Positions 2,401-45,247 of a stretch of 64,000 bases of DNA are shown in pieces. A model generated the notes under the pieces. It was not told the DNA's origin. It saw only the letters and a program-made list of their open reading frames with translations, and ran no database searches. How positions within the stretch are numbered: the first letter of the stretch is position 1; every line of letters begins with the position of its first letter. Source of the stretch: Parcubacteria group bacterium (GTDB taxonomy: Bacteria > Patescibacteriota > Minisyncoccia > UBA10092); contig JACPLW010000002.1 in NCBI GenBank assembly GCA_016186325.1, positions 1,485 to 65,484 of the forward strand, written 5' to 3'. The translations under genes were made by a program, and so were the position numbers.

Positions 2401-2470
2401 AAAATTATTTCATTAAATCATCAATTGAAACACCTAGCCCTTTAGCAATTTTCGCCATAGTTTCAATTTG

Positions 2471-2545
2471 TGGGCGCATCTGGATTTGAACCAGAGACCT
2501 TCTCAATGTCAATGAGACGCTCTAACCGGGCTGAGCTATGCGCCC
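2471..2545 (-). tRNA. tRNA-Val (anticodon GAC), second diverged copy
   Basis: Cloverleaf on minus strand; anticodon loop TTGACAT; shares 5' 12 nt and 23-nt upstream flank with the copy at 933-1004. Confidence 0.8.
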
Positions 2546-4870: not shown

Positions 4871-6208
4871 TTACAAATCTCTAATTTCTTGGCCATTATA
4901 ACCGCCTAAAACTCGAATACATTGGTTATGATCTCTAATTTTCCTCATCAGCCCTTGAAAAGCTGAAAGAGTGGCATGGGTAACAATTACCTGCCACGGA
5001 TTTATCTTGTATACCCATTCAGACAGCTCTTTTCCGGAAGCATGCGACGAGAGATGAAATCTCTCCACATCGCAATGTCTGGGAATTTGCTGACGGTTTA
5101 CTTGGAACTGATGGCCGCGCTCAAGCTCTAAGAGCCGCCGGCCGCCGGTGCCCTCTACTTGATAACCCGGCAAAAGCACCGCGCTTTTATGGTCTGTCAG
5201 AATGTGGGGCAGATAAAACATCGCGAGTCCGCCCTCAAGCATTCCATGGGAAGAAACGATTACCGCCGGACCGCTTTTAAGAAGTTCTTGGCGGTAAGCG
5301 TAGGCCTCTTCCTGCTCTTCGGGAACGGCAATCAAATTTCTGGGAAAAGCTAAGCCATTATCATTAGGACTCCATTCATTAGAGTCGTTGATGATACCGG
5401 CCGCCGTTCTAATCATCCCATCAATATGAACCGGAACATCAATTCCGGCCTTGGCTAAGCCATTGGCCAAAATAATGCCTATGTTCGGTCCAGTGATGGA
5501 AAAAGACGGGACCAAAACCTTTCCACCCCGGCCTAGAATCCCGATAACCCGATTAACAAACCGTTGTTCCTCATGTTCACGGTCCGGCAAATTCCGGTCG
5601 CCGTAAGTTCCCTCCGTGATTAAAACCTCCGGAGAAAAAATATCATTGATAACTTCAGCCCCCTTAATGGTCGGCTGGTCGTGAAAACTAATGTCTCCCG
5701 AATGAGTTATCCTAAAACCGCTTGGGGAAACGATATCGATGCTCGCCGCTCCATTAATGTGGCCGGATGACCGAAATCTCATTTTCCAGCCCGGCCAAGG
5801 CGAAAACCATTCCGGCTTATGGACTAACTTAAATCTTTTGGGACTCACCGCCTTACTTATATCGGAAGCGGAGAAATATATATCAACTTTTTCTCCTCTA
5901 TCCAGTTTACGAGTTACGACTTTGTAAGAATCCCACAAAAGCATGCGGGTAAAGCGCCAAGTAACTTTGGTGCTGTAAACAGGCGTATCGGGATGCGCGT
6001 TCGTAAAAAGAGGCAGCATTCCGATGTGGTCAAGATGGCCGTGAGTTAAAAGCAACGCATCAACATGGCCTTCCACTATCGGCGGAGGCAAAATCTTTCC
6101 GCCTCTTTGCACTGCTCCGCAGTCAATAACAATCCTTTTGTTGTCAAGTTCAATTAAGTAATGAGACCCCGAGATGGGGACTCCGCCACTGAGCGCAGTA
6201 AACCTCAC
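4871..6208 (-). CDS. MBL-fold beta-CASP ribonuclease (RNase J / CPSF-like)
   Basis: 445 aa; metallo-beta-lactamase motif HGHLDHIG; beta-CASP-like C-terminal region. Confidence 0.65.
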   Translation of the reverse strand: MRFTALSGGVPISGSHYLIELDNKRIVIDCGAVQRGGKILPPPIVEGHVDALLLTHGHLDHIGMLPLFTNAHPDTPVYSTKVTWRFTRMLLWDSYKVVTRKLDRGEKVDIYFSASDISKAVSPKRFKLVHKPEWFSPWPGWKMRFRSSGHINGAASIDIVSPSGFRITHSGDISFHDQPTIKGAEVINDIFSPEVLITEGTYGDRNLPDREHEEQRFVNRVIGILGRGGKVLVPSFSITGPNIGIILANGLAKAGIDVPVHIDGMIRTAAGIINDSNEWSPNDNGLAFPRNLIAVPEEQEEAYAYRQELLKSGPAVIVSSHGMLEGGLAMFYLPHILTDHKSAVLLPGYQVEGTGGRRLLELERGHQFQVNRQQIPRHCDVERFHLSSHASGKELSEWVYKINPWQVIVTHATLSAFQGLMRKIRDHNQCIRVLGGYNGQEIRDL

Positions 6209-6452: not shown

Positions 6453-7508
6453 TTACTTCTTGCCGCGAGCGCGGTCGCGCTTCCAGTCGGAACTCTTATG
6501 AGTTCCGAACTCAGCGCCGAAGGTGCGCCGGTTCGCGGCGCCGCCTTCCAGCGAGCGCGCCTGGCTGACGCGCCCGGCGCTCTCCGCCTCACGCTTGACC
6601 ACGAGGCGAAGCCCCGCGACCGTATAGAACGTGAGAACTGCCCGCCGCTCCACCCAGTCAGGGTGGTCTTGCGGCAGATCCTTGCGGGCCCGGAAGTCCT
6701 CGAGGGCCTCCGAGCGGCACGTGCCGCAGCAGCGAATGCCGTAGGCGAGCGTCTTGCCCGCCTCCTCGATCTTGACCACTCCCGGAGGGATTTCTCCCGG
6801 AGGGATTTCCCACGGGAAGTTCTCCGCGTCGGCGCGGAGAAGCTCGCCGGCGACGATGTCGCCGCCGTCGCCCTTGCCGTGCTGACGGCGGTGAAGCTTG
6901 CCATCGTCTCCCCGCTCGAGGAGGAAACGCTGGGTCAGCTCCACCGGCTCGTTGTAACCGCGATGCCGCGGAGTGGCGCACGGCATCTTCTTGCCGGCCA
7001 CGAGCGGATCGGGATCCGGCTGCTCGGCGACCAGCTCCGCGATCGCCGCCTTCTCCGCGGCCAGCTCGGAAAGATAGTGCCTGAACATGGACCGGGTGAT
7101 CTCCACCCCGTCCTTGGCCTCGGCAGCAAACCGCTGCCGAATCCCACGGACCGTCGCCTGGCCCTTGTAGAGCCCGGCGTCCCAGTCCGCCTGCATCTCG
7201 CTGTCGAAGAGCAGCCGGTCGTCGTTGGCCGGCCTGCTGCTGCCGTCCTTCTCGGCCTTCTCGCGCTTGCCGCGCGAGATGATCTCGGCCGTCGCAGCCT
7301 CGATCTCAGCCACGGTCACGTCGGCCGGCATCCGCGGCTTGACCACCTCCGAGGCGGCCCACACCGCGAAACCGAGCGACCACCCCTGCTTCTCGGCGAT
7401 ACGCTTGAGCGCCTCGATGACGCCCTGCTGGCTGAACCGCTTCTTGTCATCCGCTGCTACAACTATCTTCCTGGGCTTGGCCATGATTGGCCTCCGTTGT
7501 CCCGCCAA
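6453..7508 (-). CDS. hypothetical protein (GC-rich island gene, no recognisable family)
   Basis: 351-aa ORF; SD ACGGAGG 7 nt before ATG; strongly GC-rich unlike its flanks; tandem 15-bp duplication encodes PGEIPPGEIP; own consensus promoter and terminator. Confidence 0.5.
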   Translation of the reverse strand: MAGQRRPIMAKPRKIVVAADDKKRFSQQGVIEALKRIAEKQGWSLGFAVWAASEVVKPRMPADVTVAEIEAATAEIISRGKREKAEKDGSSRPANDDRLLFDSEMQADWDAGLYKGQATVRGIRQRFAAEAKDGVEITRSMFRHYLSELAAEKAAIAELVAEQPDPDPLVAGKKMPCATPRHRGYNEPVELTQRFLLERGDDGKLHRRQHGKGDGGDIVAGELLRADAENFPWEIPPGEIPPGVVKIEEAGKTLAYGIRCCGTCRSEALEDFRARKDLPQDHPDWVERRAVLTFYTVAGLRLVVKREAESAGRVSQARSLEGGAANRRTFGAEFGTHKSSDWKRDRARGKK

Positions 7509-24946: not shown

Positions 24947-25056
24947 CGCATACGACGACCAAAGAGTATCTCGGCCGTCTTTTTACTTAGCGGTTAGATT
25001 TCTACCTACTTTTAATTCAGAACACCATATTATGTGCAGCACTCTGACGGCAAGCG

Positions 25057-25092
25057 GGTGAGCAGAATCGAACTGCCGTTAATCTTTTTAAG
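25057..25092 (-). other. tRNA 3'-end-like fragment (T-arm plus acceptor, resembles tRNA-Gly 3' end)
   Basis: Reverse complement GGCAG TTCGATT CTGCT CACCCGC T; no matching 5' half nearby. Confidence 0.4.
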
Positions 25093-25162
25093 ATAACGGG
25101 CTATCCACAAGACAAAACCGAACCATTGTGATATTATTTATAGGTGGTAACAACACGTCATT

Positions 25163-25834
25163 ATGCGTAATGATAAGCATATTGCTATAAAATTAAGAAA
25201 GCAAGGGAAAAGTTACAGTAAGATAAGCAAAGAGTTGAACGTGCCTAAAAGCACGTTGTCTGCTTGGCTTTCGGATATAAATTGGTCTAGGTTTATAAAA
25301 ATTGGTCTTACGAGAAGAGCTAATTATATTGCTAGAAAACGATTACGATCATACAATAAAAAACAGAAAATATTTTGGGAAGCGTGGCGAGCACAGGCAA
25401 GACAACAAGCTCGCAGTAGCTTTCCGAAACTTAAGTCAAATCCTCTCTTTATATCAGGAATAATGATTTATTGGGGCGAAGGTGATAGTAAAATAGAAAA
25501 TTCCAACGTCAGGATATCAAACACTAATCCAGATATGATCAGGGTTTTTAATTTATTTTTGCGGATAATTTGTAAGGTCCCAAAAGAAAAAATAAAAATG
25601 GCAATGATTTTATACCCTGATCTCAATGAAATCAAATGTAAAAATTTTTGGAGTAAGACTTCTGGTGTGCCTAAGGGTCAATTTATAAAAACTCAATTTA
25701 TCAGGGGTAAACATCCTACCAAAAGATTGACTCACGGAATTGCTTTAGTATACTACCCTAGTAGAGAACTAAAAGAAAAAATATTCGTCTGGATTGAGCT
25801 TTTCCACAAACAATTTCCGCTCATGCGGGTGTAG
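25163..25834 (+). CDS. HTH-domain protein, possible LAGLIDADG-like nuclease; paralog of 31894-32562
   Basis: N-terminal HTH LRKQGKSYSKISKELNVPKSTLSAWL; central IMIYWGEGDSK resembles a LAGLIDADG-type motif; 3' end overlaps tRNA-Gly. Confidence 0.5.
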   Translation: MRNDKHIAIKLRKQGKSYSKISKELNVPKSTLSAWLSDINWSRFIKIGLTRRANYIARKRLRSYNKKQKIFWEAWRAQARQQARSSFPKLKSNPLFISGIMIYWGEGDSKIENSNVRISNTNPDMIRVFNLFLRIICKVPKEKIKMAMILYPDLNEIKCKNFWSKTSGVPKGQFIKTQFIRGKHPTKRLTHGIALVYYPSRELKEKIFVWIELFHKQFPLMRV

Positions 25835-25898
25835 CACAATGGTAGTGCGCTTGGTTGCCAATCAAGATACGTGGGTTCGATTCCCATCACCCGCTCCA
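25825..25898 (+). tRNA. tRNA-Gly (anticodon GCC)
   Basis: Acceptor GCGGGTG/CACCCGC; anticodon loop TTGCCAA; T-loop TTCGATT; CCA encoded. Confidence 0.8.
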
Positions 25899-25905
25899 TA
25901 ACACA

Positions 25906-25930
25906 AAAAGCCCTGTAAATGGGCTTTTTG
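25906..25930 (+). terminator. intrinsic terminator
   Basis: AAAAAGCCCTGTAAATGGGCTTTTT. Confidence 0.65.
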
Positions 25931-26025
25931 TGTTGACCCACTTACCCATTGCCAAAAGATATTTTTTGCGTTATTATGATAGCACATAACGATAGTGGAT
26001 AAGTTGTTATTAATTTTACCTAATT

Positions 26026-26808
26026 ATGCGCACAAAAATAAGAAAAATCACTCAAATTTTGGCTTTATCGGGCCTTTTTGCCGTATTTAGCTTTATCGGT
26101 TTAAAGTTCGCCGTGGCCCAAGAATTGCCGATGACAACCGCCGCCGACAAAGTTCCGTCTCTTAAAATTTTGCCGGCCGGCTTTTATCAATTTAACAATT
26201 TAAACATTTTAAAAGGACCCACTTTGGATGAGCCGCCGGCGACCATAGAAGCCATTCAAAAAAATGAAGATTCCTGCGTCGTTTATGAAAACGGTAAAAC
26301 CGACCGTCCTTTACCATGTGTCTTTAATAGCGAAGCGAGCAATAACTTTATAATTCAGATAGATGAAAGAACGACACTTCTTGGCAGTAATCAAGAGCCG
26401 GCGCTTTTAAGCGATTTTGCGGCCGGCGATCATGTTAATGTTTTGGGTTGGCTATTGGCTGATTCAAAAACCATCCGGGCGGCTGTTTTAAGAAGTTTAG
26501 AACAGAATAAAGATTTTCATCAGTCATTTTCGGGAACTATAAAAAAAGTTGACGCCAACGGCTTTATAATAACTCTTGATAATGGCGATGAAATTTCGGT
26601 ACAAACCCCGATTGTTGAAGGAGCGCAAGTTACAGTAAAGGGCGTTTTTGATAAAGTTAATATGGCAGTAAGCAATGTTTTATCGATGGCTTTCAGGTCG
26701 AATATAGTATTGGAAGCTCCCGCGGAAAAACCGGGGGTAGAAAAACCGGCGCCGGCCGCCAAGCCCTCTATTTTGTTTAAGAATTTCCTCAAAGTTTTCG
26801 GATTGTAA
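26026..26808 (+). CDS. secreted hypothetical protein
   Basis: 260 aa; N-terminal signal peptide (LALSGLFAVFSFIGLKFAVA). Confidence 0.55.
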   Translation: MRTKIRKITQILALSGLFAVFSFIGLKFAVAQELPMTTAADKVPSLKILPAGFYQFNNLNILKGPTLDEPPATIEAIQKNEDSCVVYENGKTDRPLPCVFNSEASNNFIIQIDERTTLLGSNQEPALLSDFAAGDHVNVLGWLLADSKTIRAAVLRSLEQNKDFHQSFSGTIKKVDANGFIITLDNGDEISVQTPIVEGAQVTVKGVFDKVNMAVSNVLSMAFRSNIVLEAPAEKPGVEKPAPAAKPSILFKNFLKVFGL

Positions 26809-27087: not shown

Positions 27088-27128
27088 GTTTTAAAGTTTA
27101 CACTGAGCGAGTAAAACGAGTCGAAGTG

Positions 27129-27199
27129 TGCCGCGGGGCAGAATCGAACTGCCTTCAGATGCTCTTCAGGCACCTGCTTTACCATTAAGCTACCGCGGC
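27129..27199 (-). tRNA. tRNA-Phe (anticodon GAA)
   Basis: Minus-strand cloverleaf; acceptor GCCGCGG/CCGCGGC; anticodon loop CTGAAGA; T-arm GGCAG TTCGATT CTGCC. Confidence 0.75.
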
Positions 27200-31804: not shown

Positions 31805-31810
31805 TTTTCG

Positions 31811-31881
31811 GTGGACCTACGGGGAATCGGACCCCGGATTTGATCATGCCATGATCACGTGTTACCACTATACCATAGGCC
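31811..31881 (-). tRNA. tRNA-Ala (anticodon GGC)
   Basis: Acceptor GGGCCTA/TAGGTCC with G3.U70; anticodon loop ATGGCAT; unusual T-loop TCCGATT. Confidence 0.65.
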
Positions 31882-31893
31882 CCTATTGTAAAA

Positions 31894-32562
31894 TTAAATT
31901 ATTTCTGCAATTTTCATTAACTCATTAAATATATCTGCAGAAAAATAATCAATTCTGCAAACACCCTTATAATCCAATTTTTTGGATGGCCTCCCTAATG
32001 TTCTTGGATCTATTTGTGCTTTATAAAATTTTTTAAGAGGAATTCCTGTTGTTTTAGACCAAAATTTTTCTAGAGTTTTTATATCTTGGTCGGCTCTACA
32101 TTGTAAGGTGCATCGAAATTTATTTTCATCAATATTATAACAGCGTCGTAATAATCGTAAAAATAAGCTAATTACTTTTGGATCAGAGTTCCCGAAAACT
32201 ACGGAACAATTCGATTTTTTTCCTTCGCCCATATATAGCATTGCGACAACGATTTTAGCAATATTTTTATCTTCAATAAGTTTTTTAAGATGCCAAACGC
32301 GATCAGATACTAATTTTAAGTACTGTTCTCGTTTTTTTCTGTTTGTCGCCAAAGCCAATTTTCGACTTCTATTAACATTATCTATGACCCGATTTTTTAA
32401 TACTTGTTTTTGATCTTCAGACAATACAATATTTTTAAACCAAACTGATAACGTACTCTTGGAAATTGGATGATTTAATTTATTCTGAATTTCACCGTAT
32501 GTTTTTCCATTTTTTCGCAACAATACGGCTTTATTTTTTAAGTGGTAGTATCTTGATTTCAT
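31894..32562 (-). CDS. HTH-domain protein, possible LAGLIDADG-like nuclease; paralog of 25163-25834
   Basis: N-terminal HTH LRKNGKTYGEIQNKL..KSTLSVWF; AMLYMGEGKK; FWSKTTGIP shared with the paralog. Confidence 0.5.
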   Translation of the reverse strand: MKSRYYHLKNKAVLLRKNGKTYGEIQNKLNHPISKSTLSVWFKNIVLSEDQKQVLKNRVIDNVNRSRKLALATNRKKREQYLKLVSDRVWHLKKLIEDKNIAKIVVAMLYMGEGKKSNCSVVFGNSDPKVISLFLRLLRRCYNIDENKFRCTLQCRADQDIKTLEKFWSKTTGIPLKKFYKAQIDPRTLGRPSKKLDYKGVCRIDYFSADIFNELMKIAEII

Positions 32563-33195: not shown

Positions 33196-33234
33196 ATGTT
33201 ATTTATCTTTATTTAATAATAAACATTAGCCCTA

Positions 33235-33306
33235 TGCCCTCGAGAGGAATTGGACCCCTATCTTACCCTTAGGACGGGTCTGCTCTGTCCGTTGAGCTAC
33301 GAGGGC
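33235..33306 (-). tRNA. tRNA-Arg (anticodon CCU)
   Basis: Acceptor GCCCTCG/CGAGGGC; anticodon loop GTCCTAA; T-loop TCCAATT. Confidence 0.6.
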
Positions 33307-33393
33307 AACATGAATAAAAATTAATTTGCGTTAACTGCGTTATATATTATACTATATATAAACAAACAATATTAAACCTTAAATTTTAATAAT

Positions 33394-44880: not shown

Positions 44881-44953
44881 GGGCGACTAGCTCAATCGGC
44901 AGAGCGTCTCGTTTACACCGAGAAGGCAATAGGTTCGAATCCTATGTCGCCCA
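44881..44953 (+). tRNA. tRNA-Val (anticodon UAC)
   Basis: Acceptor GGGCGAC/GTCGCCC; anticodon loop TTTACAC; T-arm ATAGG TTCGAAT CCTAT. Confidence 0.8.
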
Positions 44954-45123: not shown

Positions 45124-45197
45124 GGGCGCATAGCTCAGCTGGTTAGAGCGTCGCATTTACACTGCGAAGGCCCTCCGTTCGAATCGGAGTGCGCCCA
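45124..45197 (+). tRNA. tRNA-Val (anticodon UAC), second copy
   Basis: Acceptor GGGCGCA/TGCGCCC; anticodon loop TTTACAC; T-arm CTCCG TTCGAAT CGGAG. Confidence 0.8.
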
Positions 45198-45247
45198 CTT
45201 TGTGCGGGACACCGAGTAGGTCCGAGGTTCAATCCCTCGAACGCCCA
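45198..45247 (+). other. tRNA 3'-fragment (T-arm CGAGG TTCAATC CCTCG plus acceptor AACGCCC A) directly abutting tRNA-Val
   Basis: No matching 5' half; lies between tRNA-Val and a tyrosine recombinase gene. Confidence 0.4.

Follow-up and report, generated by a model that had tools for sequence, protein, structure and literature searches.

Two paralogous HTH-LAGLIDADG-like genes of a Parcubacteria genome, each paired with one tRNA gene, as candidate free-standing homing endonuclease genes

In phages T4 and T6, SegB is a GIY-YIG homing endonuclease whose free-standing gene lies between tRNA genes and which targets the tRNA region (PMC2988022, PMC13096335). SegB is co-inherited with the neighbouring tRNA genes and drives duplication and amplification of tRNA segments (PMC2988022, PMC13096335). 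Genes for HNH endonucleases are embedded in the tRNA arrays of mycobacteria and of mycobacterial plasmids and phages, where they have been implicated in shaping tRNA repertoires (PMC5966550). In bacteria of the candidate phyla radiation (CPR), rRNA insertions encode single-domain LAGLIDADG enzymes, such as I-ShaI, that act as homodimers and cleave their own insertion sites (PMC11270868). Free-standing homing endonuclease genes in phage tRNA regions and LAGLIDADG enzymes in CPR rRNA introns are thus already known. The subject of this study is a pair of genes, designated A and B, found in 64,000 nucleotides of a Parcubacteria/Patescibacteria (CPR) metagenome-assembled genome (GCA_016186325.1, contig JACPLW010000002.1; the whole stretch is called the window hereafter). 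Each gene is located immediately 5' of a tRNA gene, tRNA-Gly(GCC) for A and tRNA-Ala(GGC) for B, and both are probably free-standing genes for homing endonucleases with tRNA genes as their targets.

The original prediction, which was made from the DNA letters of the window, had described two similar proteins of about 222 amino acid residues with an N-terminal helix-turn-helix (HTH), an LYxGEGxK-type motif and a shared FWSKTTG, and all of these features were recovered. The polypeptides of A and B were 29% identical across ~210 residues (E=1e-18), and by this similarity they are true paralogs. Each of the two had an entry at NCBI with 100% identity. Pfam HTH_23 matched residues 6 to 38 of A, the motif was IYWGEGDSK in A and LYMGEGKKS in B, and FWSKT(S/T)G was present in both. 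A profile search of the window identified no A/B paralogs beyond these two. The linkage counts given below are from 160 related loci in total, which were sampled from 80 species-representative genomes for the A family and 80 metagenome contigs for the B family. Further family members were identified by a local profile search over all collected loci. The superfamily comprised 6174 clusters (50% identity) at E<=1e-3, of which 3782 were found at E<=1e-10. It is referred to here as a large HTH-LAGLIDADG-like superfamily, without a name to date, that is found in Patescibacteria (CPR) and in phages with tRNA arrays.

Each subfamily was associated with one tRNA gene. A complete and co-oriented tRNA-Gly(GCC) gene followed A in 76 of the 80 loci, and three more were cut by the contig end. 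The lone exception, locus L059, had a decayed tRNA-Gly remnant at that place. Similar to A, B was followed by tRNA-Ala(GGC) in 78 of 80 loci, the remaining two being cut by the contig end. Moreover, divergent paralogs were found directly upstream of tRNA-Val(GAC), tRNA-Arg(TCT), tRNA-Arg(TCG), tRNA-Arg(CCT), tRNA-Gly(TCC), tRNA-Ile(TAT) and tRNA-Gln(TTG), and the clustering of the proteins tracked the identity of the downstream tRNA, not the genome. In L067, for instance, each of the three copies grouped with copies from other genomes that precede the same tRNA, namely Arg(TCG), Gly(TCC) or Gly(GCC). The pairing of subfamily and tRNA is specific and almost absolute.

In the bacterial loci, the gene is positioned 5' of its cognate tRNA in the same orientation and usually splits a tandem tRNA pair, which is Phe|Gly for A and Arg(CCT)|Ala for B. 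The downstream tRNA was constant and the upstream neighbour varied. The first tRNA upstream of A was most often tRNA-Phe(GAA), which took this place in 31 of 80 loci and preceded the start by 60-150 nt. Upstream of B it was most often tRNA-Arg(CCT), in 35 of 80 loci; in 31 of these the distance was no more than 300 nt, and it was typically ~43 nt to the start. Counted from the A stop codon, the tRNA began between -21 and +65 nt in 78 of 79 cases, and in the remaining one the open reading frame (ORF) ran 92 nt into its tRNA. Stop codons located within the tRNA were seen for 30% of the A and 64% of the B genes, with offsets of -10 and -15 nt being the commonest. The predicted overlap of A and its tRNA was confirmed in the window and is 10 nt long; the final codons ATG CGG GTG TAG correspond to tRNA positions -2 to 10 and the stop codon itself to positions 8-10. 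The predicted adjacency of B and tRNA-Ala(GGC) also held. The features of both loci are listed in Table 1.

Table 1. Features of the A and B loci, in coordinates of the window
Feature	Positions	Strand	Remarks
Remnant of the former resident tRNA-Gly(GCC)	25053..25079	-	tRNA positions 46-72: variable-loop end, T arm, 3' acceptor strand
Leader of gene A	25080..25162	+	Conserved with L175 and L176
Promoter-like site in the A leader	25109..25137	+	AAGACA-17-TG-TATTAT; consensus scan 9/12, extended -10; weak evidence
Gene A	25163..25834	+	223 aa; HTH, long helix, single LAGLIDADG-like domain; tRNA-Gly(GCC)-linked subfamily
Promoter-like site inside the A 3' end	25727..25754	+	TTGACT-16-TATACT; ~70 nt before the tRNA
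tRNA-Gly(GCC)	25825..25898	+	CCA encoded; lineage-foreign allele; ARAGORN and Rfam, 71.9 bits
Perfect hairpin of 15 bp immediately 3' of tRNA-Gly	25899..25935	.	Terminator-like, bidirectional; -22.1 kcal/mol, z = -6.9
tRNA-Phe(GAA)	27128..27199	-	Usual upstream partner of the A site elsewhere; displaced and on the other strand here
tRNA-Ala(GGC)	31810..31882	-	Co-oriented with B, 11 nt past the B stop; ARAGORN and Rfam
Gene B	31894..32562	-	222 aa; paralog of A; tRNA-Ala(GGC)-linked subfamily
tRNA-Arg(CCT)	33234..33307	-	Usual upstream partner of the B site

Upstream of A, the original prediction had placed a fragment resembling the 3' end of tRNA-Gly. The fragment is real, but it is on the minus strand and is derived from an allele different from that of the intact tRNA. 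Its 27 nt were 27/27 identical to positions 46-72 of the tRNA-Gly(GCC) genes in L029 and L173 (blast E~3e-8 to 4e-11). It is located 84-110 nt upstream of the A ATG, inverted relative to A and the intact tRNA, and its T stem is GGCAG/CTGCT, compared with GTGGG/CCCAT in the intact tRNA-Gly. Because its 5' two thirds are gone, it was not called a tRNA by ARAGORN or by Rfam at E<=10.

The origin of the fragment was revealed by the close relative L173 (GCA_030648915.1), in which B was 89% identical, most shared segments were 78-86% identical at the nucleotide level and no A gene was present. The tRNA-Gly(GCC) gene of L173 is situated 175 nt from the orthologue of the window's ORF 26026-26808 and diverges from it, in the orientation opposite to that of the window's intact tRNA. 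The last 27 nt of this tRNA-Gly gene are the window's fragment, and their orientation relative to the orthologue of ORF 26026-26808 is also the same. Thus, the fragment is what remains of the tRNA-Gly(GCC) gene native to this lineage. The L173 tRNA-Gly and the intact tRNA-Gly of the window, in turn, differ in the D arm, the anticodon stem and the T stem, and the former is without an encoded CCA. The comparison indicates that a cassette consisting of the 83-nt leader, A, a foreign tRNA-Gly(GCC) allele and the 15-bp hairpin has replaced the 5' 45 nt of the resident tRNA-Gly. The block from the remnant through the tRNA was common to the window and to L175 and L176, two other relatives with A (83-86% protein identity). 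The homology to L175 starts exactly at the outer end of the remnant (25053), and that to L176 starts 12 nt inside it (25065). In L176, the hairpin was kept at the same position after the tRNA, with a different stem sequence.

Two further observations concern the surroundings of the remnant. In L176, the tRNA-Gly remnant is interrupted, ~100-250 nt upstream of A, by an inserted element that is palindromic, GC-rich and ~150 nt long. In the window, the segment 23050-25050 has a G+C content of 0.46-0.58, compared with ~0.35-0.42 around it, contains ORFs without Pfam match and abuts the outer (3') end of the remnant; its border is also where the homology with L175 ends, exactly at 25053. This patch may be an island that used the 3' end of the former tRNA-Gly for its integration.

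The presence of the genes is polymorphic at a defined site, with clean empty sites. In the A-less genomes L089, L091, L119 and L153, the Phe and Gly(GCC) genes were 1-10 nt apart, and in the B-less L046, the Arg(CCT) and Ala(GGC) genes were 2 nt apart, which bears out the empty-site comparison that had been suggested. Among loci that were not selected for A, 4 of 8 tRNA-Gly(GCC) genes carried it. Some occupied loci also contained unlike or broken tRNA copies. In L010, two very different tRNA-Gly alleles flank A on either side; in L059, the upstream tRNA-Gly copy is intact and the downstream one is decayed; and in L119, the 5' half of another tRNA-Ala allele is found upstream of B. The foreign allele and the remnant in the window, together with the alleles of L010, point to horizontal arrival of the gene with co-conversion of flanking DNA.

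Inverted scraps of the tRNA-Gly 3' end were also found just upstream of A in L076 (5947-5977) and L077 (3136-3154), which belong to a distant, Kaiserbacteria-like branch and have a window-like geometry. Such recurring inverted scraps could be due to inverted landings that happened more than once, to repair by fold-back or to a binding site. Upstream scraps of at least 11 nt matching the locus's own tRNA were slightly enriched but sporadic (6 of 288 tests, compared with 3 of 1342 controls). A flanking tRNA scrap was considered as a defining feature of the family and rejected, given that only a few of the ~160 loci have one; the scraps are scars, not components. The insertion footprint that had been proposed for A therefore stands for the window, where the fragment is what is left of the resident tRNA-Gly, but not as a general property of the family. 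Separately, L067 contains two 19-nt direct copies of the tRNA-Gly(GCC) 3' end (6925-6943 and 7061-7079) downstream of that tRNA, which look like attachment-type (att) repeats of integrated elements and are unrelated to the upstream A.

Decayed copies, which belong to the decay phase in the cycle of homing genes, were present but rare. L051 is a clear pseudogene that has lost part of the HTH to a deletion, is frameshifted and has a stop in place of an invariant Trp, and L129 and L159 have one in-frame nonsense codon each; in all three, the tRNA is intact. These are 3 defective copies of ~160, in a sampling that favoured intact copies. The identities of A proteins correlated poorly with those of the upstream "host" tRNA (Spearman rho 0.20), a proxy that was itself uninformative (rho 0.11 against tRNA-Gly).

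With regard to the proteins themselves, all library matches were confined to the N-terminal HTH, which is of the transposase type and the best conserved part of the protein: HTH_23, HTH_SB and other Sleeping-Beauty-like, Tc3-like and CENP-B-type matches and a weak match to IS630. Searches of Pfam, NCBIfam, PHROGs and PDB with the full-length proteins or their profile returned HTH matches only. AlphaFold models from the family alignments were confident, with predicted local distance difference test (pLDDT) scores of 92.9 for A and 90.4 for B, and showed the same architecture in both, in which a three-helix HTH is followed by a helix of ~50 residues and one alpha/beta domain. When the C-terminal domain was isolated, its profile had one coherent sequence match in PDB, which was also the best one: the archaeal homing endonuclease I-DmoI (E~0.01). 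The alignment places the family's LYxGEGxK...N on the second LAGLIDADG motif of I-DmoI, GLYVAEGDK, and E106 of A on E117 of I-DmoI. In the predicted models, LY[WLMI][GA]EGxK closes helix 94-106 of A and helix 99-113 of B. The motif Glu (E106 in A) was invariant in the A, B and cross-subfamily alignments.

The LAGLIDADG-like domain suggested by the original prediction thus gained the I-DmoI match and the invariant Glu, but no LAGLIDADG match in Pfam or Foldseek. The C-terminal domain is therefore called LAGLIDADG-like, in its motif and probably its fold, with an intact candidate catalytic residue: the I-DmoI match and the invariant Glu speak for the name, yet Foldseek and Pfam were silent and the predicted topology deviates, so that membership in the certified family is not claimed. 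From these features we infer a nuclease activity of A and B. No GIY-YIG match was found for the family in Pfam or PHROGs.

Relatives of A and B were also found inside tRNA arrays of large IMG/VR contigs. In one viral array (L161), a family ORF is placed between Leu(AAG) and Leu(CAG) genes with a 15-nt overlap. On another viral contig (L167), where nine tRNA genes occur in 2 kb, the ORF 4986-5543 encodes an A/B-like N-terminal HTH fused to HNH_4 (E=1e-7). Such an exchange of modules suggests that the C-terminal domain of A and B has the role of a nuclease. As a side observation, L164 and L165 (4878-5663), viral contigs of 372 and 497 kb, have a family member that is antisense between tRNA-Asn and tRNA-Glu and overlaps both, which is the only case seen of a family gene opposed to its neighbouring tRNAs.

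Compared with the described systems, SegB is the closest functional precedent for A and B. Similar to A and B, SegB is encoded by a free-standing gene between tRNA genes, and the duplicated or broken tRNA copies beside A and B fit its behaviour. Different from A and B, which are LAGLIDADG-like and found mainly in bacterial chromosomes, SegB has a GIY-YIG fold and is a phage protein, and it shows neither a one-subfamily-one-tRNA relation nor a fixed position at the tRNA 5' end. The LAGLIDADG enzymes of CPR rRNA insertions share with A and B the phylum and the single domain, and they act as homodimers on highly conserved structural-RNA genes, as A and B probably do. They are, however, encoded within introns or insertion sequences and match the Pfam LAGLIDADG models, whereas A and B are free-standing, are located outside the RNA gene, possess an extra N-terminal HTH and a long helix, and are undetected by Pfam. 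I-DmoI, the product of an rRNA intron, is monomeric and has two domains; its identity to the family was only 14-16%, and unlike I-DmoI, the A/B family has a shorter first hairpin and an extra predicted helix. Finally, the HNH genes of tRNA arrays differ in their nuclease domain, and a strict pairing with one tRNA has not been described for them.

The reading of A and B as free-standing genes of homing endonucleases directed at tRNA genes, which we regard as probable though well short of certain, would work as follows. The A or B protein would form a dimer, like other single-domain LAGLIDADG enzymes, and the dimer would recognise the DNA of the cognate tRNA gene or of the tRNA-tRNA junction in genomes without the gene. 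The target DNA would be cut, and recombinational repair would then bring in a copy of the gene along with the tRNA gene next to it. Conserved tRNA genes would have three uses at once, being the target, the homology arms and a landing site that is harmless and well transcribed. Expression could come from read-through of the tRNA operon or from the gene's own leader promoter (25109-25137). Where the stop codon falls within the tRNA, maturation of the tRNA 5' end would take it off the message and so limit expression. Promoter-like sites 5-100 nt before the tRNA were enriched in A loci (25 of 79, compared with 2-8 of 79 in control windows), and no such enrichment of an embedded tRNA promoter was found in B loci. 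With a promoter-like site for the tRNA lying in its 3' end, A would be more likely to be kept, as is the case for the nuclease gene in T4 (PMC2988022). In the window, the A cassette landed inside the resident, oppositely oriented tRNA-Gly(GCC), leaving the 27-nt remnant.

A stronger version, a "tRNA replacement drive", is also conceivable. Here, the putative endonuclease would break the single-copy, essential cognate tRNA gene, and the cell would survive only with the copy borne by the cassette. The promoter and the 5' end of the cassette tRNA would be embedded in the nuclease gene, and spread by homing would be combined with retention like that of an addiction module. The window, L010 and L059 are compatible with such a drive and are not proof of it; we consider it rather unlikely.

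Several results weigh against the homing endonuclease reading. Seventeen diverse members had no match to Pfam LAGLIDADG_1/2/3 at E<=1-10, and none of the nuclease models in Pfam, NCBIfam and PHROG matched the family. Foldseek against PDB returned no match at E<=0.001 and no LAGLIDADG protein, the best matches being weak ones to OmpA-like and RidA proteins. The predicted topology, with its short first hairpin and an extra helix after the third strand, departs from the canonical alpha-beta-beta-alpha-beta-beta-alpha. WhiA, a LAGLIDADG-derived transcription factor that does not cut, scored equal to the enzymes. Gene-linked and gene-free tRNA-Gly had the same D-arm and 5' types, so there was no allele signature of self-immunity. 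Nearly all sampled copies were intact, well conserved and lineage-associated in appearance, which a host function would also explain. Moreover, the estimates of prevalence rest on very few unselected sites, and cleavage by the A or B protein is putative, deduced from the sequences.

Part of this evidence is shared by the strongest rival, according to which A and B are domesticated, WhiA-like DNA-binding proteins of LAGLIDADG origin that regulate transcription or processing of the neighbouring tRNA without cutting and belong to an old, vertically inherited operon structure. WhiA (DUF199) has two degenerate LAGLIDADG domains that have lost the catalytic acidic residues, and a C-terminal HTH. Its fold matches the family as well as the enzymes do, the HTH is what the family conserves best, and the rarity of defective copies (3 of ~160), the retention of the same tRNA partner by subfamilies across deep divergence and the tRNA promoter-like sites in the 3' end of one third of A genes would all suit a regulator. 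However, the proteins of the A/B family contain a single LAGLIDADG-like domain, have the HTH at the N-terminus and retain, as an invariant Glu, the acidic residue that WhiA has lost; WhiA is not linked to tRNA genes, and a weak HTH_WhiA match was obtained for one family member only. The gene was, in addition, missing at about half of the unselected sites, where the tRNAs are simply adjacent, and in L173; the tRNA thus does not need it. A cassette with a foreign allele that replaced the resident tRNA in the window, and the relatives and the HTH-HNH analogue in viral tRNA arrays, also speak against a regulator inherited vertically. We consider this alternative improbable, though it deserves more weight than those that follow.

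Much less probable is a role at the RNA level, in which the protein, made from a transcript shared with its tRNA, would bind that tRNA specifically or act like a maturase, and so aid its folding or processing. Some LAGLIDADG proteins are RNA maturases, which provides a precedent, and co-orientation together with a stop codon inside the tRNA implies co-transcription. Nothing specific speaks in favour of this role: the same tRNAs occur without the gene in many genomes, linked and gene-free alleles show no systematic difference, pseudogenised copies leave the tRNA intact, and the HTH with its Tc3- and Sleeping-Beauty-like matches points to binding of DNA.

Islands of tyrosine integrases integrate at the 3' end of tRNA genes, carry the integrase and leave direct repeats. 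A small integrative element had been one half of the earlier interpretation. In its classic form, this would be a recombinase-driven island with the tRNA and a partial direct repeat as attL and attR. A recalls such islands in its tRNA association, in the intact tRNA and 27-nt 3' fragment that flank it and in its transposase-like HTH (HTH_23, HTH_SB, IS630), but this reading is highly improbable, since the 223 residues of A are an HTH and a LAGLIDADG-like fold, no integrase, recombinase or DDE domain was found in A or B or detected in the neighbouring ORFs (most of which are without any Pfam match), the gene is 5' and not 3' of the tRNA, flanking scraps are sporadic, and the fragment is no direct repeat of the att type, given its inverted orientation and its different allele, and is shown by L173 to be the remnant of a whole resident tRNA. 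The homing alternative was the better half of that interpretation.

Other features of the window are noted here. Between tRNA-Arg(CCT) and B, the segment 32605-33195 (-) encodes two proteins, a pyrophosphohydrolase of the MazG type with 106 aa (Pfam E=5e-15) and an acidic coiled-coil one with 88 aa; the same interval in L173 contains MazG only. Because typical B loci have ~43 nt at this place, the Arg(CCT)-B site of the window has gained extra cargo. Directly downstream of tRNA-Ala(GGC), the segment 29643-31804 (-) encodes a Mur ligase of 470 aa and a protein of 250 aa that weakly matched ATE_C and FemAB-type GNAT proteins and could be an aminoacyl-tRNA-dependent transferase. At some distance from A and B, two unlike tRNA-Val(GAC) genes, at 932-1004 and 2470-2545 (-), flank an ORF of 392 aa (1222-2400) that was not among the family matches in the window, and two different tRNA-Val(TAC) genes, at 44881-44953 and 45124-45198 (+), are 170 nt apart. 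Unlike duplicate genes for one isoacceptor are unusual for so small a genome. The duplicate tRNA-Val genes may be traces of tRNA gene replacement similar to that of tRNA-Gly.

We know of no earlier description of an HTH-LAGLIDADG-like superfamily whose subfamilies are each tied to one replaceable chromosomal tRNA gene, and a literature search found no published account of such a tRNA-linked superfamily. Its C-terminal domain is covered by no Pfam, NCBIfam or PHROG model, and for annotation it matters that the stop codon is within the tRNA gene in 30-64% of family members. If the homing endonuclease reading is true, the family would be a large one of chromosomal, free-standing LAGLIDADG-type homing endonucleases, and the dedication of each subfamily to one tRNA would explain a recurrent, unannotated feature of the tRNA clusters of Patescibacteria. 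It would also tie bacterial chromosomes to the association of nucleases and tRNAs recently described in phages, and would offer a natural panel of compact enzymes, each with an HTH and one LAGLIDADG domain, that have different and predictable DNA targets. For the bacteria themselves, it would provide a concrete mechanism by which tRNA genes are replaced horizontally in very small genomes with single-copy tRNA genes. Should the replacement drive also be true, it would be a main force in the horizontal movement of tRNA genes and in the reshuffling of tRNA order in CPR bacteria.

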